DNA of 27,556 bases, taken from contig CAYPKD010000004.1 of NCBI GenBank assembly GCA_964411255.1, positions 178,147 through 205,702 on the forward strand. Direction: 5' to 3'. Position 1 is the stretch's first letter. Each line of letters starts with the position of its first letter. Position numbers and translations under genes: made by a program. Below, piece after piece: positions 11,045-27,556 of the stretch. Source of the DNA: an uncultured Gammaproteobacteria bacterium (GTDB lineage: Bacteria > Patescibacteriota > Patescibacteriia > UBA11705 > DATKZF01). The notes under the pieces are model-generated. The model had not been told where the DNA came from, made no database searches, and saw only the letters and a list, made by a program, of their open reading frames with translations.

Positions 11045-11061
11045 ATTTTTTATTTTATTTT

Positions 11062-11268: not shown

Positions 11269-11331
11269 ACGATTTAATGGTTCAATCTTCGCAAAACCTT
11301 CTGGCCTGCCAGCCGAAGCTTCAGCGAAGGC

Positions 11332-11418: not shown

Positions 11419-11510
11419 TCTTTCTCCTTCAACCACTCGCCTGCTCTGTACCGAACGCTAGTTCTGGTGCGGGGGCCATCTCTCCCTTAACGAACGAGTT
11501 TAATGAAAAT

Positions 11511-11564
11511 ACAATCTTGTACAATCTCGTAATCAGTATTATCTTGTATACAAATCTCGTAATC
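11511..11564. repeat. Imperfect tandem direct repeat of about 24 nt between the tRNA-Ser 5' flank and the PHP-gene promoter
   Basis: ACAATCTTGTACAATCTCGTAATC is at 11511-11534 and ATTATCTTGTATACAAATCTCGTAATC is at 11538-11564. Confidence 0.5.
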
Positions 11565-11608
11565 CTGTAACTAATTTATCAAATTTTCGCCAAAAAATCA
11601 ACTATTTC

Positions 11609-11637
11609 TTGACTTAAACTACCCATAATGTAAAATA
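11609..11637 (+). promoter_or_regulatory. Sigma70-like promoter TTGACT-N16-TAAAAT for the first PHP gene
   Basis: TTGACT is at 11609-11614 and TAAAAT at 11631-11636. The SD ACGGAGGTAAAAATG is at 11663-11678. Confidence 0.5.
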
Positions 11638-11675
11638 TTAAATCAATCTATTGTCCTTTACAAACGGAGGTAAAA

Positions 11676-12548: not shown

Positions 12549-12563
12549 TTCGTGGTTTTTTTT
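12539..12563 (+). terminator. Intrinsic terminator after PHP paralog 1
   Basis: The hairpin AACCGCG-TAATT-CGTGGTT (7 bp including one G:U) overlaps the stop codon and is followed by TTTTTTTT. Confidence 0.6.
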
Positions 12564-12570
12564 AATATTC

Positions 12571-12599
12571 TTGACTTTTTCCCTATAAAAGCCTAAACT
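12571..12599 (+). promoter_or_regulatory. Candidate promoter for PHP paralog 2: TTGACT at 12571-12576, weak -10 TAAACT at 12594-12599 after a 17-nt spacer
   Basis: Same -35 hexamer as the paralog 1 promoter. The -10 is imperfect. The SD AACAGGGGGAAAAAATG is at 12623-12639. Confidence 0.4.
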
Positions 12600-12636
12600 T
12601 TTATAACATATATGTTCTTTCAAACAGGGGGAAAAA

Positions 12637-13530
12637 ATGCCTTTTGAAGCTGATATGCATAGCCATTCATACTATTCTGATGGTTATAATTCTCCAGCTG
12701 AATTAGTCAAAACAGCAAAATCCCAAGGGTTAAAGGCAATTTGTCTGACAGATCATGATAATTTTAACGGCATACATGAATTTATCAGAGCCTGCAAATT
12801 AGCACGACTTGATTTCATCCATGCAATTGAGCTGACAACTACCTATAAAGGTGTAATCGTTCATATATTAGGCTATGGATTAGATCTGAATAATCACACT
12901 CTTAATAAAGTGGTCTTTTCTCAATGGTATGTTCATAACCTCAGAATGACTCAAATATTGAGAAAATATAGAAAAAAAAAGGTTATGGATGTTTCATTGG
13001 ATAATTTAAAAAGGTCAGTCCAATGCAAAGGCCCTTGTATGTTTGACACTTGGCTAATAGATTTTCGCATGAGAATGGCTGAAATTTCTTTTGAACAAGC
13101 AAAAAATGAAATTAGCGGTAATGGATTTGTTAATACTGAATATGATAGTGAATTATTACTCACTGCCCCTCAGGCAGTAGATCTAATTGATAATGCTGGA
13201 GGATTAGCAGTGATTGCTCATCCTGGTGAAATAAGAAGAAGGCTTGAAAACAGAGGGATTCACGTAAATTGGAATAATTTCATTCAATTATGTATTTCCA
13301 TTCTTGAAAACCAGGGTTTAGCTGGAATAGAAGTGTCTCATCCCAGAAATGATGATGAACAAACTGAATTTTTAACCCATCTGGCAGATCAACGAGGATT
13401 AATAAAATTTGGCGGGTCTGATTATCATGGAAAATTTAAATCATATCTTCCTGGTCAATGCGGCATTAGTTATAAAGCTTTTCAGCAGATTAAAGCCAAA
13501 ATTATTAAAAAAAGACCGCGAAAATCGTGA
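12637..13530 (+). CDS. PHP-domain phosphoesterase (TrpH/YciV-like), paralog 2
   Basis: MHSHSYYSDGYNSPAELVKTAKSQGLKAICLTDHDN is collinear with paralog 1, as are IAHPGE and GGSDYHG. Paralog 2 has a basic C-terminal tail, KKRPRKS. Confidence 0.8.
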   Translation: MPFEADMHSHSYYSDGYNSPAELVKTAKSQGLKAICLTDHDNFNGIHEFIRACKLARLDFIHAIELTTTYKGVIVHILGYGLDLNNHTLNKVVFSQWYVHNLRMTQILRKYRKKKVMDVSLDNLKRSVQCKGPCMFDTWLIDFRMRMAEISFEQAKNEISGNGFVNTEYDSELLLTAPQAVDLIDNAGGLAVIAHPGEIRRRLENRGIHVNWNNFIQLCISILENQGLAGIEVSHPRNDDEQTEFLTHLADQRGLIKFGGSDYHGKFKSYLPGQCGISYKAFQQIKAKIIKKRPRKS

Positions 13531-13830: not shown

Positions 13831-13868
13831 CCAGCTTAAATCAAAGCTGGCTTTATTTTGTTTTTTTA
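13831..13868. terminator. Bidirectional intrinsic terminator between the zinc-finger gene (+) and the convergent membrane-protein gene (-)
   Basis: The stem CCAGCTT-AAATCA-AAGCTGG is flanked by an A-run upstream and TTTATTTTGTTTTTTT downstream. Confidence 0.6.
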
Positions 13869-15317
13869 ATCTAAATCATAATCATATTGAGCCCAGAACT
13901 TATACTTTGACAGAGTAGAGCTTTGCCATTCTTTGTTCATATAAATTGATTTGTGATTCAACCATGCAGTATAATCATATCTTATCTTTGAATCATCAAT
14001 ATCTTTTAATCTTTCCATTTGATTAAATATATCCACAGACAGTCTGCTTAAATATCTCGTATCTAGTTCCTTATCCTGACCAGCTAAATAGCGGTCAATA
14101 TTTACCTTGGCAATCTTTGCCTGCATATTTATACCAGTCATATACATTAAATATACGATAGAAACAATCAAGCCGATTTTAACAAATAATCTATAATGTT
14201 TTCTGAAAATCACGATTATAAGCAAGGCTAATAATATTAATCCAATATAAATAATAAAATGCCAGACCAAAAATCTTAATTGAGTTAAGCCATATGCCTG
14301 TTCATACAAAAACATTCTCTTTAATGCTGATGCTGTAATAATCAATGTTTGAAAAACAAAAAGACTGGTTAAAATCTTTCCTAAGTCGATTTTTTTTGAT
14401 TTGTTGATTCTGTACATTACATAACTAATAATCAAAACAAGGAAAGTAATGGCGCACATTTGATAAAATCCTTTATGCACATAATCTGCATAGGATATAT
14501 CATATTTTTTTATTACCTCATGTCCTCCAAAAAGAAACATTATTTGAATGCTAATAAACAATAAGAAGAATGCATTTAAAACTCCTAACACAATATTGCT
14601 TATTAAATAGTCTTTTTTCTTTTCTTCAGCCTTTGCCTCAATAGGCTTCTCATCTTCTTTTTTCTTTTTAAATCTTTTTTGTAAAAGATACGCATAAAAA
14701 ACTCCGCTAAAAAAGATGAACAAAGCTATTGTTCTCACAACTCTCCAAACATTATGAGAGTCAACATCAAAATCAAAAAAATCAGTCATCCACTTTTCAA
14801 AAATCATGTCAGCAGCGGCAAAAAGGCTGCCAAAAATTAAAACCAGCGGAATAACGATTGCCAGAGCAATTACAACCTTACTTCCCTTCTTAAATCCAAA
14901 CTTACCAATACCTGAGAATGATGAAAACATTTTGGAAAAGAATCTTCCAATAAACATTAATAATGAAAACGGAAATATTCTCTTCACCTTTCTGATCGGC
15001 ATTTCATCAACTCCAAACCAGAATAAGAAAAGAATTAATAAAAAGATTGCTGCTAAAGGCGCAACAACATGCACAAAAGTGTTTTGGTAAATTGCCACTG
15101 AGCCAGCATACCATAAGATTGGAATGCAAAATAAAAGCGACCATGCGTTTGCTAATTTTTTAATAAAAACAAGCCGCAAAATAACTGCTAAAATCAGCAG
15201 TCCTAGGATAAAGACACTAAAATTAATGCCTAAATTTGTTGAGGGGAAAAGCCAGTCATACAAAATGGCAAAAATAACTGCCATCAGTAAAACAATTAAT
15301 TTTTGTTTCCTGGCCAT
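13866..15317 (-). CDS. Large polytopic membrane protein (about 12 TM, 483 aa) with a roughly 80-aa soluble C-terminal domain, function unknown
   Basis: It is hydrophobic throughout, with a Lys-rich cytoplasmic loop KKRFKKKKEDEKPIEAKAEEKKK. I recognise no catalytic motif. Confidence 0.55.
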   Translation of the reverse strand: MARKQKLIVLLMAVIFAILYDWLFPSTNLGINFSVFILGLLILAVILRLVFIKKLANAWSLLFCIPILWYAGSVAIYQNTFVHVVAPLAAIFLLILFLFWFGVDEMPIRKVKRIFPFSLLMFIGRFFSKMFSSFSGIGKFGFKKGSKVVIALAIVIPLVLIFGSLFAAADMIFEKWMTDFFDFDVDSHNVWRVVRTIALFIFFSGVFYAYLLQKRFKKKKEDEKPIEAKAEEKKKDYLISNIVLGVLNAFFLLFISIQIMFLFGGHEVIKKYDISYADYVHKGFYQMCAITFLVLIISYVMYRINKSKKIDLGKILTSLFVFQTLIITASALKRMFLYEQAYGLTQLRFLVWHFIIYIGLILLALLIIVIFRKHYRLFVKIGLIVSIVYLMYMTGINMQAKIAKVNIDRYLAGQDKELDTRYLSRLSVDIFNQMERLKDIDDSKIRYDYTAWLNHKSIYMNKEWQSSTLSKYKFWAQYDYDLD

Positions 15318-15788: not shown

Positions 15789-16493
15789 TTATTTATCCAA
15801 TGCTGCATCAATTTCACTCTTAAATTGTTCATATGGCAATGCACCACTAAGTAACTTCCCGTTTATAAATGTTCCTGGCGTACCGCTGATCCCTGCTTTT
15901 TGAGCTCCAAGCATATCATTTGCAATTTTTTGAGCCATATCACCGTTATCTAAACAACTATTGAATTCACCTGTGTTTAAGCCCAAACCAGCTGCTGCTT
16001 TTTTAAATTCATCATTGCCTAAACCACCGCCTTCATTTAAGTCGAAAAGTTTATCATGCATTTCCCAGAACTTACCCTGCAAACCTGCACATTCAGCTGC
16101 TTCAGCAGCTTTTTGCGCATTTTCATGAAATGACAATGGGAAATTTCTGAAAACAATTGCCACCTTATCTCCGTACTCTTTAGCTATCTGCTGCATTGTG
16201 GCTGTATGTCTAAAACAATATGGGCATTCATAATCAGAATATTCAATAATTTGAACTTTTGCATTTTTACTTCCTTTCACATATTCACTATCACTAATTG
16301 ACTGAACTGGCTCTGCCTGAGGCTGTTCTGGCTGCTCAGCCTGTTGTTGTGGCTGCGCCTGGACTTTTTCAGCCAAATTAACTGATTCACTTTGGCCTAG
16401 AACAAATACTAATAGCCCAATAAAACATAAAACGCTGACTACAGCTAAGCCAACGAAAAAGCCGAGCCAAAAGTTTGATTTATTTTTTTCCAT
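15789..16493 (-). CDS. Membrane-anchored DsbA-family thiol:disulfide oxidoreductase (thioredoxin fold, CPYC active site)
   Basis: It has an N-terminal TM helix, a Gln/Pro/Glu-rich linker (QAQPQQQAEQPEQPQAEP), then YECPYCFRH and the usual DsbA helical insertion. Confidence 0.8.
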   Translation of the reverse strand: MEKNKSNFWLGFFVGLAVVSVLCFIGLLVFVLGQSESVNLAEKVQAQPQQQAEQPEQPQAEPVQSISDSEYVKGSKNAKVQIIEYSDYECPYCFRHTATMQQIAKEYGDKVAIVFRNFPLSFHENAQKAAEAAECAGLQGKFWEMHDKLFDLNEGGGLGNDEFKKAAAGLGLNTGEFNSCLDNGDMAQKIANDMLGAQKAGISGTPGTFINGKLLSGALPYEQFKSEIDAALDK

Positions 16494-16628: not shown

Positions 16629-18128
16629 CTAATGACCAATTTTAAATATCTCAACTTTATTTGTTGCCATTACACCAAGCTTTATCCGATCATCAGATGA
16701 AGCATAAAGAGTAAATAATTTCTCACCTTTCTTTATCCTTTGACCAAAAAACGCATGCAAATGAACTCCCGCAAGCTTATCGCTTGGCGCACCAAGGTTC
16801 ATGCAAATTTCTTTAATTGCCTTGTTGTCAACAAAATTAATTTTACCCGTTTTTTTAGCATGAATTTCATATCTTTTAGCGCCAGAAGTGAAATCTTCTG
16901 AATGCTGGTCAGCTTTTCCGCCTTGCGCGATTACAATTTCATTCATTTTATCCCAGGCAGCGCCTGAAGTTAATTGCCGCATGGCAATTTTTCTGCCCTG
17001 ACCTTTTTTTGCAAACCCTTTTAATTCTAATAATTCACCTGCTAGTTTTACTGATTTTCTTTCTAAATCAAGCGGACGAAGCTCATGCCTTTGCAAAACT
17101 CTGAATACATCCCGAGCTTCCAGCGCTGGGCCAATTCCTCTGCCCAGCGGCTCTACGGCCTTTGTTTTCACTGCTTTTACCTTCATACCAAACCTTTTTC
17201 CCAAAGCAATGAATTTCTTCTCGATCATATTTGCTTTTGCCATATCAGGCACTTTGGTTGTCGGTCCGACCGGAATGTCAATAATTAAATAATCAACACC
17301 GGTCGCCACTTTTTTAGCTAAAATACTAACAATCATTTTATCATACGGCTCAAGAGCCAATGGTTTTGAAACTTTTATAATCTTATCATCAGCTGGAGCA
17401 AGGCTTAGTCCCCCGCCCCAAACCAGACAGCCATGTGTCTTTTTTACAATTTTTTTAATCTCATCCATTGAAAATGATACTGGGCAAATTACTTCCATTG
17501 TGTCTGCTGTACCTGCCGGAGATGTAATTGCTCTGGATGAAGTCTTTGGGATATATAGCCCGAGCGAAGCGATAATTGGAATAATTAACGGCGTAATTCT
17601 ATTACCTGACAGGCCGCCGACTGAATGCTTATCTACAGCTTTAACATTCAGGTTCATTTTCTCACCAGTTTCAGCCATTGCTTTTGCCACGTAATAGAGC
17701 TCGTCAAGCGAATAATCTTTTACAAAACTGGAGGCAGCATAATAAGTGGTTTCAACCGAACCTAGCACTCCGTCAACAATATCTTTAATAACCGCATAAA
17801 TTTCTTTGTATGTTACTGGTTTTCCCATTAACTTTTTATTTATTGTCTGAATAGAAAGTGGCCGGCTCATAATGCTGGCTTCAACAATATCGCCTGATTC
17901 TACTTGCACTTTTTTCCATACTTCCTTGAACAAGCCTAATTCTCCAGGTCGAACCTTTGTATTTGTCGTATCAGCGGTAACGATCGCTTTTTTATTTTTA
18001 CTCCAAATCAAATTCAACCTGTCTCCAGGATAAATTCCATAGCTTTCCGCTTCATCTTCATTTAAAACAGCGATCATTTTATCGCCTGTTGAAAAATCCA
18101 ATTTTTTGCATTTTAAATAAAACGCCAT
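16629..18128 (-). CDS. AMP phosphorylase (thymidine-phosphorylase family II enzyme with an N-terminal extension)
   Basis: At 499 aa it is longer than a classical TP. It has glycosyltransferase-family-3 core motifs (SVGGLSGNRITP, TSSRAITSPAGTADT) and a C-terminal alpha/beta domain, and it sits next to RuBisCO and the R15P isomerase. Confidence 0.8.
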   Translation of the reverse strand: MAFYLKCKKLDFSTGDKMIAVLNEDEAESYGIYPGDRLNLIWSKNKKAIVTADTTNTKVRPGELGLFKEVWKKVQVESGDIVEASIMSRPLSIQTINKKLMGKPVTYKEIYAVIKDIVDGVLGSVETTYYAASSFVKDYSLDELYYVAKAMAETGEKMNLNVKAVDKHSVGGLSGNRITPLIIPIIASLGLYIPKTSSRAITSPAGTADTMEVICPVSFSMDEIKKIVKKTHGCLVWGGGLSLAPADDKIIKVSKPLALEPYDKMIVSILAKKVATGVDYLIIDIPVGPTTKVPDMAKANMIEKKFIALGKRFGMKVKAVKTKAVEPLGRGIGPALEARDVFRVLQRHELRPLDLERKSVKLAGELLELKGFAKKGQGRKIAMRQLTSGAAWDKMNEIVIAQGGKADQHSEDFTSGAKRYEIHAKKTGKINFVDNKAIKEICMNLGAPSDKLAGVHLHAFFGQRIKKGEKLFTLYASSDDRIKLGVMATNKVEIFKIGH

Positions 18129-18140
18129 ATAGTATTTATA

Positions 18141-19406
18141 TTATTTTTTCCAAAACTGTAAAGCCCTTGCCAATTCTTCATGATCTTCTGAATATTCTTT
18201 TAATTTTACTCCACGCTCAATGGCTTGCACTGCCTGGCGGCAAGCCCTGGCGCCGGCAACTGAACCGTCTGGATGGCCGTGAATACCAGCGCCAAAATTG
18301 GCGATTAGATTTATTCCGAGTATTTCAACCAATTTAGGCAAAAGCCCTGGATGCAAACCACCAGAAGCAATTGGCAAAACCGGTTTAATTTTACTCCAAT
18401 CCTCTTTGACAATATTGTGGCTTTTCCAGTCTTCCTTCATCAATTGATTTACTGTTAAAACATCTTCCCGATCGCCCTCCATTTTACCAACTACTGTTCC
18501 AGTATGCAATTGGTCAACTCCGGCCAGTCTGGCTAATTTTGCAATAACCAGCATACTCATCCCATGTTTTTTATTTCTGGTAAATAATGCGTGTCCTGCC
18601 CGGTGGCCATGAATTATTAATCCTAAATTTTTCTTTCGTAAATATTGTACATTATCTAAACCAGTTGAAACGATATCAACCATCACGCATTTTCCACCCA
18701 ATTTTTTCACTAATTTTGCCCGTTCAAGCATTTGTTCAGGCGGTGCAGTAATATTACAGGCATATACTTTTTTCTGTTTTGTTTCTTTTTCAACTTTTTT
18801 CTTCCAATACAAAACCTTTTTCACTCTGTCTGCAAAACGGTTAAAGCTCATGTTAGTTAAATTCTCATCGTCTTTAACCAAATCAATGCCATTCAGCCAT
18901 ACAGCAGCTGACAATTTTGCCTGCTGGGCCGCAGTTAAACCTACTTTTGGTTTTATAATACTTCCTAAAATCACTCTGCCTTTTATTTTTAAAATCTTTC
19001 GGATGCCGTCAATGCCAAATGCCGGCCCCTTAAAACTGGCGCTGTATTTCACTGGAAATTCAATATCTTCCCATCTTAAATTTTTTATTAACTTCATACC
19101 GTAAATATTGCCTCCAATGCTTGATAAAAGTTGAGGAATACTGCCCCTTTCAAATAAATCTAAAGGATAAGCAACTTTTATTATCTTTTTCTTTTCATTT
19201 GCAAAAAAGACTCTGGCCTTTAATTTTTCTGCTAATTTGGGGTTCAGTGTCTGTAATTCTGTCCATGATCCAATAGAACTCTCCCCAGCAACTGCATCAG
19301 CTGCTTCCTGAAAGCTGACTCCTCTTGGCTCAACATAAAAAGTAGCGATAATTTCCTTATCCTTTTTTGGCTTGTATCCAATTTCAACAAATTTTACTAC
19401 TGACAT
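18141..19406 (-). CDS. rbcL: RuBisCO large subunit, short form II/III-like (421 aa)
   Basis: The motifs GIDLVKDDENL (GxDFxKDDE), IIKPKVGL (KPKLGL), IHGHRAGHA (HxHRAxH) and ASGGLHPG are present. No small subunit is present. Confidence 0.85.
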   Translation of the reverse strand: MSVVKFVEIGYKPKKDKEIIATFYVEPRGVSFQEAADAVAGESSIGSWTELQTLNPKLAEKLKARVFFANEKKKIIKVAYPLDLFERGSIPQLLSSIGGNIYGMKLIKNLRWEDIEFPVKYSASFKGPAFGIDGIRKILKIKGRVILGSIIKPKVGLTAAQQAKLSAAVWLNGIDLVKDDENLTNMSFNRFADRVKKVLYWKKKVEKETKQKKVYACNITAPPEQMLERAKLVKKLGGKCVMVDIVSTGLDNVQYLRKKNLGLIIHGHRAGHALFTRNKKHGMSMLVIAKLARLAGVDQLHTGTVVGKMEGDREDVLTVNQLMKEDWKSHNIVKEDWSKIKPVLPIASGGLHPGLLPKLVEILGINLIANFGAGIHGHPDGSVAGARACRQAVQAIERGVKLKEYSEDHEELARALQFWKK

Positions 19407-19410
19407 AACA

Positions 19411-19502
19411 TTGATAGTTACGAAGTTATGATGTTATGAAGTTACGTTGTTATTTAAAATATATATAACGTCGTAACTTAGTAACCTCGTAACATCATAA
19501 CG
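19411..19502. repeat. Imperfect palindrome of about 90 bp built from heptamer units (AGTTAYG on the left, CGTAACT-type on the right) around an AT-rich centre, lying between the HAD-like gene stop and the RuBisCO start
   Basis: The sequence is TTGATAGTTACGAAGTTATGATGTTATGAAGTTACGTTGTTAT-TTAAAATATATAT-AACGTCGTAACTTAGTAACCTCGTAACATCATAACG. Confidence 0.6.
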
Positions 19503-19914
19503 ATTTTATTAGTTTTACAATTTTTTCAATATCATCTAAGGCGAAGTCAACTTCATCTGTTTCATTATTTTTACTAAACAAAACTGTTTTAATTCCTACT
19601 TGTTTTGCTGGAAGCAAATTGCTAATAAGATCATCAATCATTAAACATTCTTCTGGTTTTATATTCAAATCATTTATAAATTTTTGATATGTATTTGCAT
19701 CTGTTTTACTTTGGCCTGATTCAGCGCAGGCAATGATAGGATCAAGCCCTAACTGATTTCCAATCTCTTTCACTGTGTTTGGAGATAAATTACTAATGGT
19801 TGCATTAATAATCCCTTTTGCTTTTAACTGTTCAACAATATCCTTGGCTTTAGGGTCAATCTGGCCATTTTTATAAACCACGCCATATAAATCCCAAATA
19901 ATTGCTTTAATCAT
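19495..19914 (-). CDS. Small HAD-like hydrolase domain protein (139 aa; a possible phosphatase)
   Basis: IIWDLYGVV sits at the motif-I position (DxDGx-like, with the second Asp replaced), and MIDDLISNL sits at the motif-IV position. It is short for a HAD enzyme, so the assignment is tentative. Confidence 0.45.
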   Translation of the reverse strand: MIKAIIWDLYGVVYKNGQIDPKAKDIVEQLKAKGIINATISNLSPNTVKEIGNQLGLDPIIACAESGQSKTDANTYQKFINDLNIKPEECLMIDDLISNLLPAKQVGIKTVLFSKNNETDEVDFALDDIEKIVKLIKSL

Positions 19915-20851
19915 ATTTTTTTTTCAAAAACTTATACTTCTTTGTCGTTTTCTTTGAAATATATTTTGGTTTTAATATTCCCAATTCTGTAATAAAACCT
20001 GTGATAAACCTGGCAGGAATAATATCAAATGCATAATTTATAATTTCCAATCCCTTTGGCGCTCTGGACCAAATTTCATTTGCTTTTCTTTGTTCAATTT
20101 CTAAATTTTTCAAATGTTTAGTTTCAATATCAAGCTTTAATGCCTGAGTTGCTATATATACTGGAATTTTTGCTTCACGCGCTGCTAAGGCCAGGCCTAA
20201 AGATCCTATCTTATTAACTGCATCACCGTCCAAAGTAATTGCATCACAGCCTAAAATTAATAAATCCATATCATATCCTTTGCTATACTGGCTGACAAAA
20301 AACGGACCTGCGCTGTCAACCACTTGGGTATTTTTAATATTCATTTTTAATAATTCTTTTGAAGTCGTTCTGCCCTGAAATAATGGCCTGGTTTCATTAT
20401 TAAAAACATGGATTTTTTTTCTTTTCTTTTTGGCCGCTTCTAATATACTTATTGCGGTAGAGGAATGACAATGAGTAAAGATATTATCATTATTACTAAT
20501 CAATTTCTCACCATAATCTTTAATAATTCTTTTATTTGTCATTATTTCAAATAAAAAACTGTCAATTCCTCTTTTTATTAAAACTCTTAACTTTTTTATA
20601 TCTAAATCCTGATTTTTATCTAAATGATATGAAACAAATCGTACAGCATTTTCTGCCATTGGCTCTGTTTCTCTGGCCCTGCTCAAGTAATATCCAATTT
20701 TTTTCACTCTGCTGATTAATTGACGGGGAGTTTTCAGCCTTTTCTCCTGAGAAACTTTTTTTAAGGTATTTAAAACAGCTTCAGCTATATTGGTTGCCCC
20801 CTGAATTTCAATGTTAACGATTTTTTTATAAATTTGGTCGATGTAATTCAT
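19907..20851 (-). CDS. Ribose-1,5-bisphosphate isomerase (eIF-2B alpha/beta/delta-like e2b2 family)
   Basis: An e2b2/MtnA-fold signature (GATNIAEAVL ... ILGCDAITLDGDAVNKIGS) is present. Its stop overlaps the HAD-like start by 8 nt. Confidence 0.75.
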   Translation of the reverse strand: MNYIDQIYKKIVNIEIQGATNIAEAVLNTLKKVSQEKRLKTPRQLISRVKKIGYYLSRARETEPMAENAVRFVSYHLDKNQDLDIKKLRVLIKRGIDSFLFEIMTNKRIIKDYGEKLISNNDNIFTHCHSSTAISILEAAKKKRKKIHVFNNETRPLFQGRTTSKELLKMNIKNTQVVDSAGPFFVSQYSKGYDMDLLILGCDAITLDGDAVNKIGSLGLALAAREAKIPVYIATQALKLDIETKHLKNLEIEQRKANEIWSRAPKGLEIINYAFDIIPARFITGFITELGILKPKYISKKTTKKYKFLKKKYD

Positions 20852-20901: not shown

Positions 20902-22326
20902 TTATAAATAAAATTCTTCTCCCATTTTTGGCACTTCAACTTTGCCAGTAAACTTATTAATATTATACAAATTATCTCTCATCACTAGACTTTCAGTTTC
21001 TTCCCCATGCACACAAAATACTTTTCTCAGGCCTTTCAAATTTCGCGCGAATTCTAAAAGTTCAGGCTTGTCAGCATGGGCGGAAAAAGAATTTAGCACA
21101 ACAACATCAGCTCTAACCGCATATTTTTGCCCAAAAATAGTCACATTTCTTTCTTTTTCCACAATTGCTCTGCCTAAAGTTCCACGCGCCATATACCCAA
21201 TTACCAGAATCAAATTCTTTGGATTTGAAATATTAAACTTCAAATGATGCTGAATTCGCCCAGCCTGGCACATACCAGAAGCTGAAATAATAATACAAGA
21301 TTTTTTATACGAATTTAATTTCTGTGATTCTTTTCTGCTTATAATATAATGCAAACCTTCAAAATAAAACGGGCTTTGCCTTTTTTTTAAAAATTCTACA
21401 GCAGCTTCCTTGTCATATGCTTCTGGATGTCTGACAAAAACTTTTGAAATTCGAGTGGATAACGGGCTATCTACAAATATTTCAATTTTTGGAATTTTCT
21501 TTTGTTCATACAATGAATGCAAAATATAAACCACTTCCTGTGTTCTTTCCAGAGAAAATCCTGGCACAATAATTTTACCGCCTCTGTTTACAACGTCATT
21601 AATAATCCATTTTAACTCTTGCTTGGCCTGACCGATTGATTCATGCAAATGGCTGGCATAAGTGGTCTCAGTAATTAACACATCTGCTCGATCAACTTTT
21701 GCCGGATCATTTAGAATTGGCATTCCGCGCCGGCCTAAATCTCCAGTAAAGACCACTCTTAGCTCCTTGCTGCCTTCTTTCATATCTGCAATGATCATTG
21801 CTGAGCCTAAAACGTGCCCAGCTTCTACTAATCTTGCTTTGCAGCCTGGAATAACCTGAAATTCAGTATTATAACGATGAGTTGTCATTAATTTCAAAGT
21901 TCTTCGAACGTCATCTTCATCATATAATGGCTCAACCTTTTTTTTCTGATGTTTCCAAATATGTTCAGCATCCTGCTTTTGTATTTTAGCAGAATCTAAA
22001 AGTAAAAGTTCAAGCAGCTCTTTAGTTATTTGCGTACAATGAATAGCGCCTTTAAAACCGCTGCGAACAAGACGAGGAATATTTCCAGCATGGTCAATGT
22101 GAGCATGACTTAAAACCATAGCTTTCACTTCTCTTGGATCAAATAAAAAACTGCGATTCTTCTTTTCTGCTTCCCCCCTTTTTCCTCCTTGAAAAAGTCC
22201 GTAATCAAATAGAATCTTTTTGCCATTTATTTCAAATAAATGCCGTGAGCCAGTCACTTCCCGGCTAGCGCCGCATGGTTTGTAAAGCATTTTTTTGTTT
22301 TTATTTCTTACTTTATTATAACACAA
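20902..22326 (-). CDS. Metallo-beta-lactamase / beta-CASP family ribonuclease (CPSF-/RNase J-like, with an RMMBL C-terminal motif)
   Basis: It has the HxHxDH motif LSHAHIDHAGNIP, a beta-CASP region, and the C-terminal GHADKPELLEF...VHGEE motif. Confidence 0.75.
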   Translation of the reverse strand: MCYNKVRNKNKKMLYKPCGASREVTGSRHLFEINGKKILFDYGLFQGGKRGEAEKKNRSFLFDPREVKAMVLSHAHIDHAGNIPRLVRSGFKGAIHCTQITKELLELLLLDSAKIQKQDAEHIWKHQKKKVEPLYDEDDVRRTLKLMTTHRYNTEFQVIPGCKARLVEAGHVLGSAMIIADMKEGSKELRVVFTGDLGRRGMPILNDPAKVDRADVLITETTYASHLHESIGQAKQELKWIINDVVNRGGKIIVPGFSLERTQEVVYILHSLYEQKKIPKIEIFVDSPLSTRISKVFVRHPEAYDKEAAVEFLKKRQSPFYFEGLHYIISRKESQKLNSYKKSCIIISASGMCQAGRIQHHLKFNISNPKNLILVIGYMARGTLGRAIVEKERNVTIFGQKYAVRADVVVLNSFSAHADKPELLEFARNLKGLRKVFCVHGEETESLVMRDNLYNINKFTGKVEVPKMGEEFYL

Positions 22327-22352
22327 TTTTAATTAGCAGTCGTGTTGATATT

Positions 22353-23795
22353 TTAGTTAAAATAACACAAAATTCCCTGAACAGAATGCCAAATATTTGT
22401 ATAAATTGCTAAAAGCAGCAGCAAAACTATAAAAATCAGTAATGGCCAGGATACTTTGCCTTTTGTAAATTCAACATGCTTTTTTTGAGCTAAAATTCCT
22501 TTTTGCTCTGCATTTAGGCCATTCAATGCTGCTAAAATTATGAAAAATAATATTAAACTGATTGAAAAATCAAAATTAAAGTTCATCCAGATAAAATATG
22601 CTGCTAAACTTGAAAATATTGCTAAAATTTCAATACTTTTATTTTTTAATCCCTGCCAGATTAAATGTAAAATTTTAACCCATATAAACAAATAAATTAT
22701 TAAGCCAATAAAACCAGTGTTTATAAGTACATCTAAAAACACATTATGCACCCGGTCAGAAATTCGGTCATCAATTGCCATTTCCTGCTCAGAAATTTGC
22801 CTTTCCGTGGACAAATACATGTAAGTTTCAGGGCCATAACCTAAAATCGGCCTTTGCAGGATTTTTGACCAGGCAAATTTATAATCCTGCATTCGAGTAT
22901 AGCCTGTACTCTGGCTAAATCCTTCGCTTGTTCTGGTTTTTATCAGTCCTTTATAAAAACCAACAACAATAACTATCAATACTACAAAAATTATTAAATG
23001 TTTATAATATTCTTTTTTCTTTGGAAAAAATATTATCAAGCAAATAATAAAAACAAGCATTGAGCCTGCAAATGCCAGCCAGGCGCTTCTGGTTAAAGTT
23101 AAAATTAAAGAAACAACCTGTAAAATAATTATGAAAAAAAACAGCACTTGCCAAACATTTTTTTTGCTTTTCCAGGCTAATAAAAATGTAAAAATTATTA
23201 TCATTGATAAAAACAAGCCTAAATAATTTGGATGGCCTAAAGTAGAAAATGATCGGCTAAAAACTTTATCAGCTGAAGCATAAAATGTATGCAAAGTTGG
23301 AAAATCAATTCCAAAGCTTTGCAAAATCGCATAGAGACAAACTGGTACTGACACAAAAGCTAAAATCTTTATTATTTTATAAAATTTGCTTTTTGAAATT
23401 AAATCCTTAATTAAAAAAAATAATAAAATTCCATGGCCGATTGTGAATAACCCCATCAATCTGTCATCCAGCCCTAATATACTTTCTGAAAAATGAGTGG
23501 AAAAGAACGAAGCTAATGAATACACCAGTACATATAAAATTAATAAAAATTCTAAGGAAAAAAAATTGTATTTTTTTAGTTCATTATAAATTTTAACTAA
23601 AACCTGTTTTAAATTTTTACATCTTACCAGCCAAATTATAAAAATTATTTCCACGAAAAAACGAAAAATTGTAATACTGTCAAGTTCATAGGGCATGCAT
23701 GACCATAAATTAAAAAACAGCGGCGTAATAATTAATATTGCCAATAAGATTTTAAAAGCAAGGTATTCAAATGTTTGACTGCAAATACTTTTCAT
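22353..23795 (-). CDS. O-antigen ligase / Wzy_C-like polytopic membrane protein (possible O-oligosaccharyltransferase or polymerase)
   Basis: It has about 10 TM helices and a periplasmic-loop signature LTRSAWLAFAGSMLVF (the R...SxxA pattern of WaaL/PglL/Wzy_C). Confidence 0.55.
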   Translation of the reverse strand: MKSICSQTFEYLAFKILLAILIITPLFFNLWSCMPYELDSITIFRFFVEIIFIIWLVRCKNLKQVLVKIYNELKKYNFFSLEFLLILYVLVYSLASFFSTHFSESILGLDDRLMGLFTIGHGILLFFLIKDLISKSKFYKIIKILAFVSVPVCLYAILQSFGIDFPTLHTFYASADKVFSRSFSTLGHPNYLGLFLSMIIIFTFLLAWKSKKNVWQVLFFFIIILQVVSLILTLTRSAWLAFAGSMLVFIICLIIFFPKKKEYYKHLIIFVVLIVIVVGFYKGLIKTRTSEGFSQSTGYTRMQDYKFAWSKILQRPILGYGPETYMYLSTERQISEQEMAIDDRISDRVHNVFLDVLINTGFIGLIIYLFIWVKILHLIWQGLKNKSIEILAIFSSLAAYFIWMNFNFDFSISLILFFIILAALNGLNAEQKGILAQKKHVEFTKGKVSWPLLIFIVLLLLLAIYTNIWHSVQGILCYFN

Positions 23796-23863
23796 AATTA
23801 CAACAAAAGCTTAACAGCCTTGCTTTTTCTGGCTATCAAGCTTTTTTTGAAAATTTATCAATA

Positions 23864-24136
23864 CTATTTCAAGTCTATACCTTCCCGTAATTCCAAATCT
23901 GCAGGGCCTGGCTTTACATTAGCCGGCAATTCTGGAATTTCCTTTTGTTTCAGCGGCGGATATGTCCGAATTTGCTTTTTCGGTATGGTCTTGAAGATAA
24001 AAGGATAGCCAAAGCCATAGCCTTTGCTTCTACCCACTGCGCTTAAAATACCAAAAGCCGCTGCTGCCACAGCTACAATAGCCACTGCAGTTACAACCTT
24101 TTGCTTAGTCGTAGTTTGAGTCTTTACATTTGCCAT
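23864..24136 (-). CDS. Small single-TM protein, paralog P2 (90 aa), with an Ala-rich TM helix and a Pro-rich C-terminal tail
   Basis: MANVKTQTTTKQKVVTAVAIVAVAAAAFGILSAVGRSKGYGFGYPF is 80% identical to P1 over the N-terminus and TM helix. The tail is divergent and Pro-rich. Confidence 0.6.
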   Translation of the reverse strand: MANVKTQTTTKQKVVTAVAIVAVAAAAFGILSAVGRSKGYGFGYPFIFKTIPKKQIRTYPPLKQKEIPELPANVKPGPADLELREGIDLK

Positions 24137-24171
24137 AATATTTGAATTTAATGTTAAATCTTGTATAAAAT

Positions 24172-24414
24172 CTACCTCAAGCCCTCATATTTTTGATGAG
24201 GCGGTACAAATTTGAAATCTGGGGCTGTCTTTTTTGGATTAATTGGAATTTCAGGATATGTTTTTTTCTGAATCACAAAAGGCCAGCCAAATCCATATCC
24301 TCTGCTTTTACCCACAGCAGTTAAAATCCCAAATGCTGCAGCTGCCACTGCTACAATGGCAATTGCTGTTATAACTTTTTGTTTGGTTGTGGTTTGCGTT
24401 TTTAATTTAGCCAT
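24172..24414 (-). CDS. Small single-TM protein, paralog P1 (80 aa)
   Basis: MAKLKTQTTTKQKVITAIAIVAVAAAAFGILTAVGKSRGYGFGWPF is followed by TYPEIPINPKKTAPDFKFVPPHQKY. Confidence 0.6.
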   Translation of the reverse strand: MAKLKTQTTTKQKVITAIAIVAVAAAAFGILTAVGKSRGYGFGWPFVIQKKTYPEIPINPKKTAPDFKFVPPHQKYEGLR

Positions 24415-24451
24415 AGTATTTTAGTTTAGGGTTAAAATTATTGTTTAAAAA

Positions 24452-24655
24452 CTACAAAGAAATGTCGTATTTCAAATGCGGAGGCACAATTTTCAACTCT
24501 GGCGCAGTCTTTTTTGGATTAATCGGAATTTCAGGATATGTTCTTTTCATTATTATAAAAGGTCGACTGAACGCCTGCGCCCAGTTATTGCCTGCCGCAG
24601 CCAAAACTCCCAGCACTGACGCAAATATGGCAATAATGGTAAAAACCAAAATCAT
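24452..24655 (-). CDS. Small single-TM protein, paralog P3 (67 aa from the internal ATG). The ancestral start codon appears to have mutated, ATG to ATA.
   Basis: The C-terminal tail TYPEIPINPKKTAPELKIVPPHLKY is nearly identical to P1 at the DNA level. Upstream, the in-frame translation IKSKNKTTIKQK is homologous to P1 and P2 MAKLKTQTTTKQK, but it has no ATG, GTG or TTG, and an in-frame TAA lies further upstream. Confidence 0.5.
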   Translation of the reverse strand: MILVFTIIAIFASVLGVLAAAGNNWAQAFSRPFIIMKRTYPEIPINPKKTAPELKIVPPHLKYDISL

Positions 24656-24782
24656 TTTCTGTTTGATAGTTGTTTTATTTTTAGATTTTATTATATTTTC
24701 TTTATTATTTAATTCTTTACTTTAATTTAAAATTATTTTTTTCTACCAATCAACTGATCTACCGATCTACCAACCTACCAAT

Positions 24783-25955
24783 TTAATCAATTTTATCAAA
24801 TGGAACATTTGTCCATTCTGAAATAATCTTTTTTATATCAAATGCAATCACTTCTGGTCTTTCACCATGCATTTTATCCATTTTATGTTCTTTTTCTGCT
24901 TCTTCTACTTTACTGGCTACTTTTACAATTTTTTTTCTAACTTTTTCTAATTTTTCTTTGTCCCTTTCTCTTTTTTGTTCATTTTTTAATTTATTAAGTT
25001 CGCTTAACAAATCTTTTATCTTATCTGGCGCTGCATCAACTCTTTGCCGAACCTGTGATGAAGCTTTTCCTATTAATTCAATTGCACTGTGCGGCTGCGC
25101 ATATGCCTTTAGACTTTTAGCAGCGCTTGCTTCGTCAATAACATCTATTGCTTTATCAGGCAACATTCTTTTTTTAATATATTTTTCTGATAAATTTACT
25201 GCAGCGTCAATCGCCTCATCGCTAATTTTTACTTGATGATAATCTTCATACGTTTTTTTTAGACCTTTCAAAATTTCAATGGTCATCTCAATTGTCGGCT
25301 CTTCAACTTCAATTGGCTGAAATCTGCGTTCCAAGGCTTCATCCGGCTTAATATATTTTTCAAATTCTTTGGTTGTAGTTGCACCAATTGCATGAAGCTC
25401 ACCCCTGGCCAAAGCTGGCTTTAATACGTCAGAAATATTTACAGCCCCTTCTGTACCTTTTGTCTGAACCAGCATATGTACTTCGTCAATAAATAAAATA
25501 ATATCATCCTTAGACTCAATAATTTCATTCACCAAACTTCGAATACGCTGTTCAAACTCACCCCTGTACTTTGTACCAGAAATCATGTCAGCCAAATTTA
25601 GTGATAATATCTTTTTATCTTTCAAAAGATCTGGCACATTGCCAGTTATAATTTTTAAAGCCAGTCCCTCGATCACAGCTGTTTTACCAACACCTGCATC
25701 ACCGATTAAAACCGGATTGTTCTTTGTTTTTCTGGATAAAATCTGAATTACTCTGTCTGTTTCTTTATCTCTTCCAATTATTGGCGTTAATTCCCCGTTC
25801 TTTGCTTTTTCTGTCAGATCTTCTGTAAATAAATTTAAAGTTGATTTTTTTGATAATAATTTTCTACCAAAAAGCTTGTCCCGATAATACCATAAAATAA
25901 AAATCAAGATGAGAAATGCCAGAATATATTGCCAATTATTTAGTAGAAAATTCAT
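24783..25955 (-). CDS. Membrane-anchored AAA+ ATPase made of a single ClpA/ClpB-type D1 module plus a coiled-coil (M-domain-like) segment. It has no N-domain and no D2.
   Basis: An N-terminal TM helix (NWQYILAFLILIFILWYY) is followed by Walker A GDAGVGKTA, Walker B IILFIDEVH, sensor-1 IGATTT, the Arg finger ALERRFQ, and the Clp D1 landmarks LIGDAGVGKTAVIEGLA and LDKAIDVIDEA. It ends at ISEWTNVPFDKID, exactly where D2 would begin (compare VSRWTGIPV), and a stop codon follows. Confidence 0.7.
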   Translation of the reverse strand: MNFLLNNWQYILAFLILIFILWYYRDKLFGRKLLSKKSTLNLFTEDLTEKAKNGELTPIIGRDKETDRVIQILSRKTKNNPVLIGDAGVGKTAVIEGLALKIITGNVPDLLKDKKILSLNLADMISGTKYRGEFEQRIRSLVNEIIESKDDIILFIDEVHMLVQTKGTEGAVNISDVLKPALARGELHAIGATTTKEFEKYIKPDEALERRFQPIEVEEPTIEMTIEILKGLKKTYEDYHQVKISDEAIDAAVNLSEKYIKKRMLPDKAIDVIDEASAAKSLKAYAQPHSAIELIGKASSQVRQRVDAAPDKIKDLLSELNKLKNEQKRERDKEKLEKVRKKIVKVASKVEEAEKEHKMDKMHGERPEVIAFDIKKIISEWTNVPFDKID

Positions 25956-26010
25956 ACTTTAATTATAACATACTTCAAAATTATGATTTGTATGATATTA
26001 ACAGCTAAAA

Positions 26011-26706
26011 TTATGTAAATTTTTTAATATCTTGTTCATTCAAATGCTTAAATTCCCCAACTTTTAAATTTCCTAATTTTAGTTTATTAATTCTAATTCT
26101 GTGCAATTTTTTTACTTCAAAACCTAGTCTTTCGCACATTCTGCGAATTTGCCTCTTTTTCCCTTCTCTTAATATAATATTAAATTTTCTTATACCAAGC
26201 TGCTGAACTTTTGCTGGCAAAGTCTTTCCTTCTTCAATAACCACTCCTTTTTGCATTTTTTCAATAAATTCTTTGGTAATTTCTTTATTTATCTCAACTT
26301 CATATTCTTTTTCCTTTTCATATCGAGGATGAGTTAATTTCAATGCTAAATCTCCGTCATTTGTTAAAATTAAAAGTCCGCTTGAATTTTTATCAAGCCG
26401 ACCGACAGGAAAAATTCTTTGCTTTTCTTTTACTAAATCAAGCACAATTTTGCCTTTTTCTTTACCTTTTTTCACTGTGGATAAGTATCCAACTGGCTTA
26501 TTTAGCATAATATAAATCTTTTCTTTTTTAGGTTTAACAATTTTGCCATTAAATTCAATCTTGTCTTTAAAATCAATCTTTGTTCCAAGCTCTCGCACAA
26601 CATTGCCATTAACTTTAACTTTTCCTTGCAAAATAAACTTCTCGGCTCTACGCCGAGATGCTATACCGCAGTCTGCTAAATATTTTTGTAAACGAATTTT
26701 TTCCAT
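26011..26706 (-). CDS. RsuA/RluB-family pseudouridine synthase with an N-terminal S4 RNA-binding domain
   Basis: The S4 domain is RLQKYLADCGIASRRRAEKFILQGKVKVNG, and the catalytic motif GRLDKNSSGLLILTNDG carries the Asp. Confidence 0.8.
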   Translation of the reverse strand: MEKIRLQKYLADCGIASRRRAEKFILQGKVKVNGNVVRELGTKIDFKDKIEFNGKIVKPKKEKIYIMLNKPVGYLSTVKKGKEKGKIVLDLVKEKQRIFPVGRLDKNSSGLLILTNDGDLALKLTHPRYEKEKEYEVEINKEITKEFIEKMQKGVVIEEGKTLPAKVQQLGIRKFNIILREGKKRQIRRMCERLGFEVKKLHRIRINKLKLGNLKVGEFKHLNEQDIKKFT

Positions 26707-26731: not shown

Positions 26732-27556
26732 TCAAACCCTAACAATCCTTTTTACATAATTATCACCTTCTTGGGCAATAATATAAGCAGTGTTACCTTC
26801 TAAATGCTCAAAGTGATAAATTTTATCACATTCTTCACTGACTTTTTCTCCTTTTTCATTCACTATAAACCATTTGCCGTCTTTTTGTGCTGCAAAAGCA
26901 ATTTTACCTCCAATATCTTGCGGGGCACCAACCTTATCATAATCCTGCCCGACTTTTTCTCCTTTTTCATTTACTATAAATGCCTTGCCATCTTTTTGTG
27001 CTCCAAAAGCAATCCTACCTCTAATATCTTGTGGAACCGAAACATTATCATAATCCTGCCCGACTTTTTCTCCTTTTTCATTTACTGTAAACCATTTATC
27101 ATCTTTTTTTGCTGCAAAAACAATCCTGCCTCCTATATCATGTGGCCTCCAAACATGATCATAATCCTGCCCGACTTTTTCTCCTTTTTCATTTATTATA
27201 AACCATTTTTCATCTTTTTTTGCTCTAAAAACAATTTTACCACCAATATCTTGTAGGTCATAAACCTCATCATAATCCTGCCCAACTTTTTCTCCTTTTT
27301 CATTTACTACAAACCATTCGGTGCCATTATGTGCTACAAAAACAATCCTACCTCCAATATCTTGCGGTTCATCAACCTGATCATAAACCTGCCCAACTTT
27401 TTCTCCTTTTTCATTTACTATAAAATATTTTCCATCTTTTTTTGCTCTAAAAGCAATTTTGCCTCCAATATCTTGCGGATCCCAAACATTATCATAATCC
27501 TGCCCGACTTTTTCTCCTTTTTCATTTACTGTAAACCATTTATCATCTTTTTTTGC
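26732..27556 (-). CDS. C-terminal part of a repeat protein made of 37-aa WG-like (here KWF) beta-repeats. The N-terminus lies beyond the right edge.
   Basis: Own translation of the minus strand gives repeats of the form ...AKKDDKWFTVNEKGEKVGQDYDNVWDPQDIGGKIAFR AKKDGKYFIVNEKGEKVGQVYDQVDEPQDIGGRIVFV..., and the reading ends in ...YVKRIVRV-stop, with the TGA being the reverse complement of 26732-26734. The frame is open to the window end. The + strand track ORF 26804-27256 is the antisense shadow of this gene. Confidence 0.7.
   Translation of the reverse strand, partial: AKKDDKWFTVNEKGEKVGQDYDNVWDPQDIGGKIAFRAKKDGKYFIVNEKGEKVGQVYDQVDEPQDIGGRIVFVAHNGTEWFVVNEKGEKVGQDYDEVYDLQDIGGKIVFRAKKDEKWFIINEKGEKVGQDYDHVWRPHDIGGRIVFAAKKDDKWFTVNEKGEKVGQDYDNVSVPQDIRGRIAFGAQKDGKAFIVNEKGEKVGQDYDKVGAPQDIGGKIAFAAQKDGKWFIVNEKGEKVSEECDKIYHFEHLEGNTAYIIAQEGDNYVKRIVRV
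26834..27556. repeat. 111-bp tandem DNA repeats (at least 6.5 copies) that encode the 37-aa protein repeats
   Basis: The anchor CTGCCC(G/A)ACTTTTTCTCC recurs at 26945, 27056, 27167, 27278, 27389 and 27500, an exact 111-nt spacing. Confidence 0.8.

Follow-up and report, generated by a model that had tools for sequence, protein, structure and literature searches.

A membrane-anchored D1-only Clp-type ATPase and its linkage to proteins sharing an N-terminal module in Patescibacteria

Structures of ClpC and ClpB place the N-domain of Clp/Hsp100 hexamers on the substrate-entry face of the first ring (D1), and the second ring (D2) of ClpA and ClpC bears the ClpP-docking loop. FtsH is a bacterial AAA+ hexamer that is anchored N-terminally and dislocates membrane proteins from their cytoplasmic tail. 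To our knowledge, Msp1 and FtsH-type AAA proteins are so far the only described cases of a single ring that has no protease partner and whose pore faces the membrane. Msp1/ATAD1 combines a single AAA ring with one N-terminal transmembrane (TM) helix, a cytosolic catalytic domain and a pore entrance near the bilayer, and removes bitopic proteins by pulling their cytosolic end (PMC9273213). Here, we analysed a 27,556-bp stretch of a contig assigned to the Patescibacteria, also known as the Candidate Phyla Radiation (CPR) (CAYPKD010000004.1, positions 178,147 to 205,702; hereafter 'the window'). It encodes an AAA+ ATPase consisting of a Clp D1 ring with a predicted N-terminal TM anchor, followed by three small proteins (s1, s2 and s3) and a Wzy_C-family membrane protein. 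The locus looks like a conserved envelope module of Patescibacteria rather than an annotation artefact.

All five genes lie on the minus strand, with intergenic gaps of 127, 37, 35 and 68 bp, in a window of ~32% G+C. The open reading frames (ORFs) of this co-oriented set, for which the original prediction had given gaps of 35-127 bp, were found where it had placed them:
24783..25955, minus strand: AAA+ ATPase, 390 amino acids (aa)
25872..25952 (codons 2-28), minus strand: N-terminal TM helix of the AAA+ ATPase, predicted single helix, N-out/C-in
24452..24655 from the first ATG (67 aa), or 24452..24694 including the ATA position, minus strand: small protein s1
24172..24414, minus strand: small protein s2, 80 aa
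23864..24136, minus strand: small protein s3, 90 aa
23805..23845, minus strand: hairpin between s3 and the Wzy_C gene, candidate intrinsic terminator/attenuator or RNA-stabilising element
22353..23795, minus strand: Wzy_C-family membrane protein, 480 aa

The D1-only AAA+ ATPase

In Pfam, the AAA+ protein matched AAA (PF00004) and AAA_lid_9 (PF17871) and nothing else; Clp_N (PF02861), AAA_2 (PF07724), ClpB_D2-small (PF10431) and Peptidase_M41 gave no match. The NCBIfam ClpB, ClpA and ClpV models covered the protein only over their D1 part (e.g. positions 152-404 of 853 in ClpB), and it scored below each equivalog cut-off (ClpB, 380.8 vs 1232.1; ClpV, the second-best match, 351.9 vs 884.95; ClpA, 346.8 vs 993.15). 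In a search against solved structures, it aligned with residues 161-491 of Staphylococcus aureus (E = 9e-93) and Bacillus subtilis ClpC, a span that takes in D1, the M-domain and the closing strand and helix of the D1 small domain. The C-terminus (...WTNVPFDKID) aligned to ClpC residue 491, at the D1/D2 junction. The recognisable motifs were Walker A (G85-T92), the pore loop K129-Y130-R131-G132 (KYRGE), Walker B (I153-E158), sensor-1 (G191-T194) and the arginine finger (R210-R211), all invariant or nearly so in an alignment of 42 family members.

An AlphaFold2 model built from the same alignment (mean pLDDT 87) consisted of a helix at residues 2-28 (pLDDT 89-95), a low-confidence linker (31-35) and the D1 fold. 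This included a long helical hairpin at 291-361, resembling the M-domain coiled coil, after which the D1 small domain resumed at 368-382. Both these helices and the ClpC alignment place an M-domain coiled coil within the D1 small domain. Foldseek ranked ClpC chains first (40-58% identity), followed by the first nucleotide-binding domain of ClpB. Judged by sequence and predicted fold, the protein is a bona fide single-ring ClpC derivative with intact catalytic motifs, made up of D1 with its pore-loop tyrosine and the M-domain. It lacks three features of class I Clp proteins (the N-domain, D2 and an equivalog-level score) and keeps D1 and the M-domain. The earlier description of an ATPase with clean motifs, a TM helix in place of the Clp N-domain and no D2 was therefore upheld by both the profile searches and the model.

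Across 115 family members, net charge averaged -0.64 before the N-terminal helix and +2.61 over the 15 residues that follow, and the latter segment was the more positive in 110/115. A strict hydrophobicity cut-off for the N-terminal segment was passed by 97/115 members, and most of the others had a weaker hydrophobic segment. Because the positive charge is concentrated after the helix, the anchor is predicted to be N-out/C-in, which would leave the ring in the cytoplasm with its substrate-entry face towards the membrane.

The closest relatives of the ATPase were all patescibacterial. Its best database matches were 340-400 aa proteins from Falkowbacteria, Magasanikbacteria, Uhrbacteria, Parcubacteria and Doudnabacteria, publicly annotated as 'ATP-dependent Clp protease ATP-binding subunit' or 'AAA family ATPase'. 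Length was below 460 aa in 117 of the 120 best matches; Walker A was present in 116/117 of these short proteins and the pore loop and Walker B in 117/117. Twenty-five matches, in which the W(T/S)x(I/V)P motif could be located, end 4-11 residues beyond it. In a neighbour-joining tree of the D1 core, 38/38 D1-only sequences formed one clade, with no full-length ClpC inside it. This clade adjoined full-length ClpC proteins, two of them on contigs labelled Saccharibacteria (L010 and L016). Given the single clade and short length as the family norm, the D1-only architecture arose long ago, has been kept stably and is no truncation. In the window and 22 further D1-only loci, tblastn detected no D2-like sequence, which rules out a ClpC split in two with D2 on a gene of its own and disposes of the concern, raised with the original prediction, that a separate D2 reading frame might lie nearby.

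Compared with ClpC of S. aureus and B. subtilis and ClpC1 of Mycobacterium tuberculosis, the ATPase shares the D1 module, AAA_lid_9, an M-domain-like coiled coil and the KYRGE pore loop. It differs in carrying a TM helix instead of Clp_N, in the absence of the D2 ring, D2-small and the ClpP-docking loop (the latter following from the loss of D2), and in forming its own clade. With FtsH it shares N-terminal membrane anchoring and, as proposed here, a membrane-facing pore. In contrast, FtsH crosses the membrane with two TM helices, has a periplasmic domain and is fused to an M41 protease, and the ATPase has no protease domain. A normal FtsH is encoded separately in relatives, e.g. three genes upstream of the ATPase gene in one Magasanikbacteria locus. 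The closest functional analogy to the mechanism proposed below is Msp1/ATAD1, which likewise has one N-terminal TM anchor and one cytosolic AAA ring. However, Msp1 belongs to the classical AAA clade and the ATPase is a Clp/Hsp100 D1 by sequence and fold, so the resemblance would be convergent. Substrates differ too, as Msp1 acts on mislocalised C-tail-anchored proteins and not on co-encoded N-tail proteins with a dedicated tag. We found no bacterial Msp1 counterpart in the literature, our coverage of which was incomplete.

The N-terminal module and its linkage to the ATPase gene

To compare neighbourhoods, 23 distinct D1-only loci were collected, 20 through the AAA+ protein and three through small-protein sequence, with ~6 kb examined on each side of every AAA+ gene (~12-kb loci). 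Scanning contigs with the AAA+ protein also returned full-length ClpC loci (72/80, mostly Chloroflexota), which were reused as controls.

A shared N-terminal module recurred beside the D1-only ATPase genes. It consists of a Thr/Lys-rich tail of 10-25 residues (TKxKV type) ending in [ST][KR][VI], a hydrophobic helix of ~16-22 residues and the motif G[YF]GFG[WYF]. Variants of the motif included (A/S)YGFG[F/I/Y] and, in the group to which the window belongs, G(K/N)(S/A)(R/Q/M)G[YF]GFG[WY]P. A module-bearing gene was found near the ATPase gene in 17 of the 20 loci ascertained through the AAA+ protein. In 14 of these it was directly adjacent, and in L006, L007 and L088 it lay two to four genes downstream. 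The usual position was directly downstream of the ATPase gene, sometimes directly upstream, with one to three module-bearing genes per locus. The remaining three loci (L008, L086 and L089) had no clear client nearby. The reverse search gave the same association: a metagenome scan with small-protein patterns confirmed three loci (L090, L092 and L093), found by small-protein sequence alone, and a D1-only ATPase gene lay directly upstream in 3/3. Adjacency persisted where the ATPases were only 43-55% identical and the other flanking genes were entirely different.

A hidden Markov model (HMM) of the module was built from 11 training sequences, most of them library hits of unknown context and three being s2 and s3 of the window and L093 P0123. 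Scored against 38,844 candidate N-termini at E <= 0.5, it gave 25 hits, all within the 268 kb of D1-only loci, versus none in 799 kb of control loci, which come from other phyla. ATPase-neighbouring genes accounted for 24/25 of these hits. An ad hoc rule for the module gave 21 in D1-only loci and 0 in controls. Module genes were thus essentially confined to the ATPase neighbourhood within the ~12-kb loci sampled.

What follows the module varied widely. The passengers included Pro/Thr/Lys tails of ~35-60 residues, Cys-rich repeats, CARDB and DUF11 domains, and unknown ectodomains of up to 700 residues. An exhaustive search of a representative library always placed the module at residues 1-50, in proteins of 80-467 aa with unrelated passengers; it gave 12 significant matches and, the module being short, carries little information on family abundance. 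Searching a 5.8-billion-protein collection with the 80-aa small protein returned only the query and its paralogue, the module being too short for significant E-values, and a 13-sequence N-terminal profile added only two further small proteins. Neither Pfam nor NCBIfam contained a model for the module, and the small proteins are unnamed in public annotations. Other secreted proteins encoded at the D1-only loci had ordinary signal peptides. The passengers are ectodomain types, which implies that module proteins adopt a predicted N-in/C-out topology.

The conserved unit is the ATPase together with proteins carrying the N-terminal module, and not the five-gene set. The original expectation that the neighbourhood would be conserved in relatives was borne out by an ATPase/small protein/Wzy_C trio at six loci (below). 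This phylum-wide linkage supports the suggestion that the ATPase has the small proteins as clients, with the amendment that clients would not be mini-proteins alone and elsewhere would be large adhesin-like surface proteins (CARDB, DUF11, Cys-rich).

The module resembles several known sorting signals. LPXTG/sortase, PEP-CTERM/exosortase, PGF-CTERM/archaeosortase, SipW-cognate and KxYKxGKxW signals are likewise short, carried by unrelated passengers and encoded next to the gene for their machine. The C-terminal signals share its tripartite make-up of outer signature motif, TM helix and basic cytoplasmic tail. Unlike LPXTG- and PEP-CTERM-type signals, the module is N-terminal and in mirror-image order, and its partner is an ATPase, not a transpeptidase or peptidase. 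The NCBIfam YSIRK, KxYKxGKxW, SipW-cognate and Tat signal models matched neither s1-s3 nor eight module-bearing homologues. A further parallel is ClpV/TssH, a Clp/Hsp100 protein dedicated to one co-encoded client that it recognises through an N-terminal peptide; in contrast, ClpV is soluble, still has both N-domain and D2, and takes apart a sheath in the cytoplasm.

Individual loci showed additional features. In L003 (Magasanikbacteria, 910-13173), module-like proteins of 574 aa and 712 aa flank the D1-only ATPase on both sides. The D1-only gene there has an FtsH gene on one side and the gene of a PilB-type T2SSE ATPase on the other, two polytopic membrane proteins being encoded in between; none of the other D1-only loci showed such a link to type IV pilus genes. 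Short genes (213-223 aa, HExxH) resembling M50/site-2 proteases abut the D1-only ATPase gene in two unrelated lineages (L098, 4345-4986; L006, 7303-7974) and may provide an intramembrane-proteolysis partner for N-in bitopic clients. Two Uhrbacteria-like loci (L007, 5114-5937; L012, 990-1808) encode membrane proteins of 80 aa and 190 aa directly upstream of the ATPase, after ruvB, which could be lineage-specific additional partners.

The small proteins, the Wzy_C enzyme and their surroundings

Within the window, both s2 and s3 carry the full module. In s2, the MAKLKTQTTTKQKV tail is followed by a 22-residue helix, GYGFGWPF and a Pro/Lys/Thr-rich tail (80.6 bits to the module HMM), and s3 has GYGFGYPF (83.8 bits). 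s1 retains the TYPEIPINPKKTAP tail and has NNWAQAFSRPF in place of GYGFG. Of the motifs attributed to all three proteins by the original prediction, GYGFG(W/Y)PF therefore stood only for s2 and s3, and TYPEIPINPKKTAP only for s1 and s2. s2 is a mosaic, with nucleotides 1-135 resembling s3 (76-80% identity) and nucleotides 135-225 resembling s1 (81-88%), and it is missing from a close relative, the metagenomic contig L090, which is orthologous to the window across the module.

Selection on the small genes was estimated as dN/dS (omega) by the Nei-Gojobori method from a single orthologous pair, the window and L090. Omega was 0.019 for s3 (dS 1.17) and 0.21 for s1 (441-683 on L090; dS 0.73), compared with 0.128 for the Wzy_C gene, 0.098 for the C-terminus of the ATPase and 0.022 for a neighbouring beta-CASP RNase. 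The 55-residue Pro-rich tail of s3 was 100% identical between the two despite saturating synonymous sites, and all four amino-acid changes in s3 fell within its first 18 residues. These values bear out the expectation that the small ORFs are under purifying selection. A plus-strand ORF overlapping s1 (24441-24725) was rejected as spurious, selection acting on the minus-strand frame.

The start of s1 differs between the two contigs. Its L090 orthologue is 80 aa long, begins MAKLKTKTTIKQKV and starts with ATG, at which point the window has ATA (24694-24692); the first ATG in the window is codon 14 (24655). Starting there gives a 67-aa protein that has lost the Thr/Lys tail. The 13 codons upstream are open and Lys-rich. 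The ATA could be a recent start loss, the source of a tail-less isoform or a non-canonical start.

Type IV pilins were considered and rejected as an identity for s1-s3, which have no G↓FxxxE motif and no N_methyl or pilin match in Pfam or NCBIfam; at E <= 0.01 they had no NCBIfam match at all. The helix is also followed by the helix-breaking GYGFGWP, unlike the pilin helix, which continues into a globular domain.

The fifth gene was confirmed as Wzy_C-type, as predicted (PF04932, 83.7 bits vs a gathering threshold of 31.7, profile positions 2-149 of 149), with ~12 hydrophobic segments and a large loop at ~285-349 holding the presumptive catalytic residues. The catalytic triads of Escherichia coli WaaL and of PglL are R215/R288/H338 and R224/R298/H349, respectively (PMC3643930). 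R236, R301 and H350 were invariant in six Wzy_C orthologues and, equated by motif position, probably represent this Arg/Arg/His triad. For WaaL, the O-antigen ligase that acts on lipid A-core in diderms bearing lipopolysaccharide, the RfaL model NF012031 scored 28.2 (vs 277), and TIGR04370 (oligosaccharide repeat unit polymerase) gave a weak match (E = 8.6e-5).

A Wzy_C gene directly follows the small gene(s) at six loci (the window, L090, L001/L002, L095, L098 and L099), whose flanking genes fall into four different arrangements. None was within reach at 16 other D1-only loci, and L092 ends before the position. One ATPase subclade joins the window with L001 (P0001), L095 (P0007) and L099 (P0010), and the Wzy_C link is confined to this subclade in the D1-only tree, which does not include the L098 (P0008) and L090 ATPases. 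A GtrA-family gene adjoins the trio in L099; near the module in the window there were no glycosyltransferase or flippase genes, and the window contained no type IV pilus genes.

This pairing recalls pilE/comP-pglL and pilA-tfpO/pilO, in which the Wzy_C-family gene is directly preceded, in the same orientation, by one encoding a small N-in bitopic protein, and the Arg/Arg/His residues are kept. Among pglL homologues, 21/31 adjoin pilin genes, the presumed acceptors (PMC3643930). Unlike in those pairs, the small proteins here have neither a class III (G↓FxxxE) signal nor a pilin fold signature, and no glycan biosynthesis genes lie nearby.

Between s3 and the Wzy_C gene, the hairpin at 23805..23845 has a 15-bp stem followed by the U-rich UUUUGUUG and ends 9 nucleotides before the Wzy_C start codon. 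It folds with a free energy of -22.3 kcal/mol (z = -4.1; 0/200 shuffles fold as well). Both stem arms are identical in L090, the differences being confined to the loop and flanks. A pattern scan did not list it. With such a hairpin, the small genes could be expressed at a higher level than Wzy_C. An Rfam scan of 22000-26200 gave a single sub-threshold snoRNA match, consistent with chance, and promoter-like matches (29 found vs 20.2 ± 5.1 expected) were enriched too little to interpret.

The remainder of the window contains several further features. An AMP-salvage cluster typical of CPR bacteria and archaea (16629-20851, minus strand) supports a Patescibacteria origin of the window and comprises:
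16629-18128, minus strand: AMP/pyrimidine-nucleoside-phosphorylase-like protein
18141-19406, minus strand: RuBisCO large subunit, form II/III-type
19495-19914, minus strand: small HAD hydrolase
19907-20851, minus strand: IF-2B-family protein, probably ribose-1,5-bisphosphate isomerase

On the minus strand ~6-8 kb from the module, 13866-15317 encodes a polytopic membrane protein of the DUF4153 type and 15789-16493 a thioredoxin-fold protein resembling DsbA. A disulfide oxidoreductase acting outside the cytoplasm could be relevant to the Cys-rich module ectodomains of relatives. Two tandem paralogous PHP-domain proteins (11676-12548, 290 aa; 12637-13530, 297 aa) lie on the plus strand, opposite to almost all other genes. 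At 26732-27556 (minus strand), a gene running off the end of the window encodes tandem 37-residue repeats with the approximate consensus KKDGKWFIVNEKGEKVGQDYDxVxxPQDIGGKIAF, specified by a 111-bp repeat (6.5 copies, 82% identity). A plus-strand ORF at 26804-27256 is the mirror image of this repeat gene and probably spurious. A 124-aa ORF at 11062-11436 (minus strand) overlaps tRNA-Ser(GGA) (11332-11418) and is probably not a gene.

Proposed mechanism, competing readings and significance

We tentatively favour a reading in which the ring pulls the module-bearing clients encoded beside it and, in the subclade of the window, Wzy_C glycosylates the mini-proteins. In Clp rings the substrate-entry face is capped by the N-domain. 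A membrane anchor in its place, ~10-15 residues from D1, would therefore bring the entrance of the pore up to the membrane on its cytoplasmic side, the geometry of FtsH and Msp1/ATAD1. The ring would then engage and thread the unstructured, Thr/Lys-rich tail that its co-encoded clients expose to the cytoplasm, acting as a client-specific dislocase or remodeller. Its purposes might include turnover, removal of anchors after ectodomain shedding, or presentation for cleavage by a site-2-type protease, and the M50 neighbour of two lineages would add an intramembrane-proteolysis step in some of them. Canonical feeding of ClpP would be excluded, since the ATPase has neither D2 nor the ClpP loop, and the product would be released or passed to another protease. 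Wzy_C would move an undecaprenyl-linked glycan onto threonines in the Pro-rich mini-protein tails, e.g. in the conserved (K/R)TYP motif, giving membrane-anchored glycopeptides. O-glycosylation of the mini-proteins appears the most likely role for Wzy_C by analogy with pilin-PglL/TfpO pairs, because the small genes adjoin a Wzy_C gene with a catalytic triad, have Pro/Thr/Lys tails and are followed by the hairpin.

Several points weigh against this reading. The assumed direction of threading and the membrane-facing pore are carried over from other Clp/AAA+ machines, and extracting large, probably disulfide-rich ectodomain proteins would have no evident purpose. Positive charges occur on both sides of the s2/s3 helix, the topology resting on the ectodomain types of homologues. 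With small residues after it (AVG↓K, LAA↓Y), the hydrophobic segment might be a signal peptide that is cleaved off rather than a stable anchor. The mini-protein tails are poor in Ser/Thr, with none C-terminal as in TfpO substrates, and Wzy_C enzymes also act as polymerases or ligases. Added to these are the three loci with no clear client nearby and the derivation of the controls from other phyla.

Of the competing explanations, the one that survives best takes the module as a specialised, cleavable signal peptide. Its n-region and a motif at the mature N-terminus would be conserved, much as in YSIRK, KxYKxGKxW (accessory Sec) or SipW-cognate signal peptides. The ATPase would be dedicated to targeting or holding the proteins, or would rid the membrane of cleaved signal peptides, and the mini-proteins would be secreted basic Pro-rich peptides of 35-55 residues, possibly glycosylated. 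The hydrophobic stretch of the AYGFGF subtype, at ~14-17 residues before LAA↓Y (with AVG↓K the equivalent in the window), suits this view. So do the passengers, which are typical secreted or surface domains, and the M50 intramembrane protease gene abutting the ATPase in L098 and L006; a conserved n-region motif next to a dedicated ATPase recalls accessory-Sec. However, neither the small proteins (E <= 0.01) nor eight module-bearing homologues (E <= 0.1) matched an NCBIfam signal-peptide model. The uncharged segment in the subtype of the window is 22 residues, i.e. of TM length, and reaches ~26 residues in other subtypes if YGFG is counted. An N-terminally anchored Clp ring would moreover thread away from the membrane, which suits clearance and not Sec delivery. 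We consider this alternative unlikely, albeit one to be taken seriously.

A second explanation, which we judge distinctly unlikely, treats the trio as glycopolymer machinery: Wzy_C as polymerase or ligase of a cell-surface polysaccharide, the mini-proteins as Wzz-like polysaccharide co-polymerase (PCP) or chain-length partners and not substrates, and the ATPase as a cytoplasmic regulator, in the manner of CpsC/CpsD in Wzy-dependent pathways of Gram-positive bacteria. The tight linkage of three genes in four contexts is consistent with it, as are the polymerases within the Wzy_C family, the weak TIGR04370 match and the GtrA-family gene beside the trio in L099. The complete conservation of the s3 ectodomain across a dS of 1.17 also suggests a specific protein contact. 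Yet most D1-only loci have module proteins and lack a Wzy_C gene, so the link between ATPase and module cannot depend on it, and in other lineages the module bears large adhesin-like domains. Pfam and NCBIfam searches gave no homology to PCP/Wzz or to bacterial tyrosine kinases, and the lack of glycosyltransferase and flippase genes near the module in the window counts against it as well.

The possibility that there is no dedicated system, the D1-only ATPase being a streamlined general membrane-proximal chaperone with neighbours retained by inherited synteny, has in our view a slim chance of being correct. CPR genomes are reduced and keep long-range synteny, flanking genes (a pseudouridine synthase, the beta-CASP RNase and the IF-2B-family gene) are common to the window, L090 and L001, and three loci lack an obvious client. 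Such synteny does not readily account for adjacency maintained at 43-55% ATPase identity amid entirely different flanks, for the near confinement of module genes to the ATPase neighbourhood or for the reverse search reaching ATPase genes in 3/3 cases. Finally, a truncated or frameshifted ClpC, or a misassembly, with non-coding small ORFs, which only the unusual length of the ATPase would favour, is excluded by the family-wide length below 460 aa and the shared D1/D2 end point of the motif-located members, by monophyly, by the absence of D2-like sequence in 23 loci and by small-ORF omegas of 0.019-0.21.

Returning to the ring-and-client reading, its fullest form is a two-part Patescibacteria system in which a tripartite N-terminal tag is served by a dedicated membrane-anchored Clp ring and one subclade is coupled to Wzy_C. 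In this complete form we rate it as possible and somewhat unlikely. That the ATPase and tag constitute a new sorting or dislocation system has a realistic chance. Our literature search, whose coverage was incomplete, found no description of a D1-only membrane-anchored Clp or of the N-terminal module, in keeping with the original prediction, which knew of no described system with the arrangement seen here.

CPR bacteria make up a large share of bacterial diversity and live attached to other cells, and little is known of how they build and renew their surface. They are generally considered monoderm-like and without lipopolysaccharide (LPS). If the proposal is correct, a lone membrane-anchored ClpC D1 ring would extend the known roles of Clp/Hsp100 proteins, and the two-part system would provide the first bacterial Msp1-like client-specific dislocase. 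The module would be a new searchable N-terminal sorting or recognition tag with which to annotate CPR surface proteomes, and the components are small and testable in heterologous hosts. The Wzy_C-linked subclade would offer a concrete candidate for O-glycosylation of proteins, or for the anchoring of glycoconjugates, in bacteria considered to be without LPS, and its glycopeptides would represent a protein-anchored counterpart of lipoteichoic acid and LPS in organisms that have neither.

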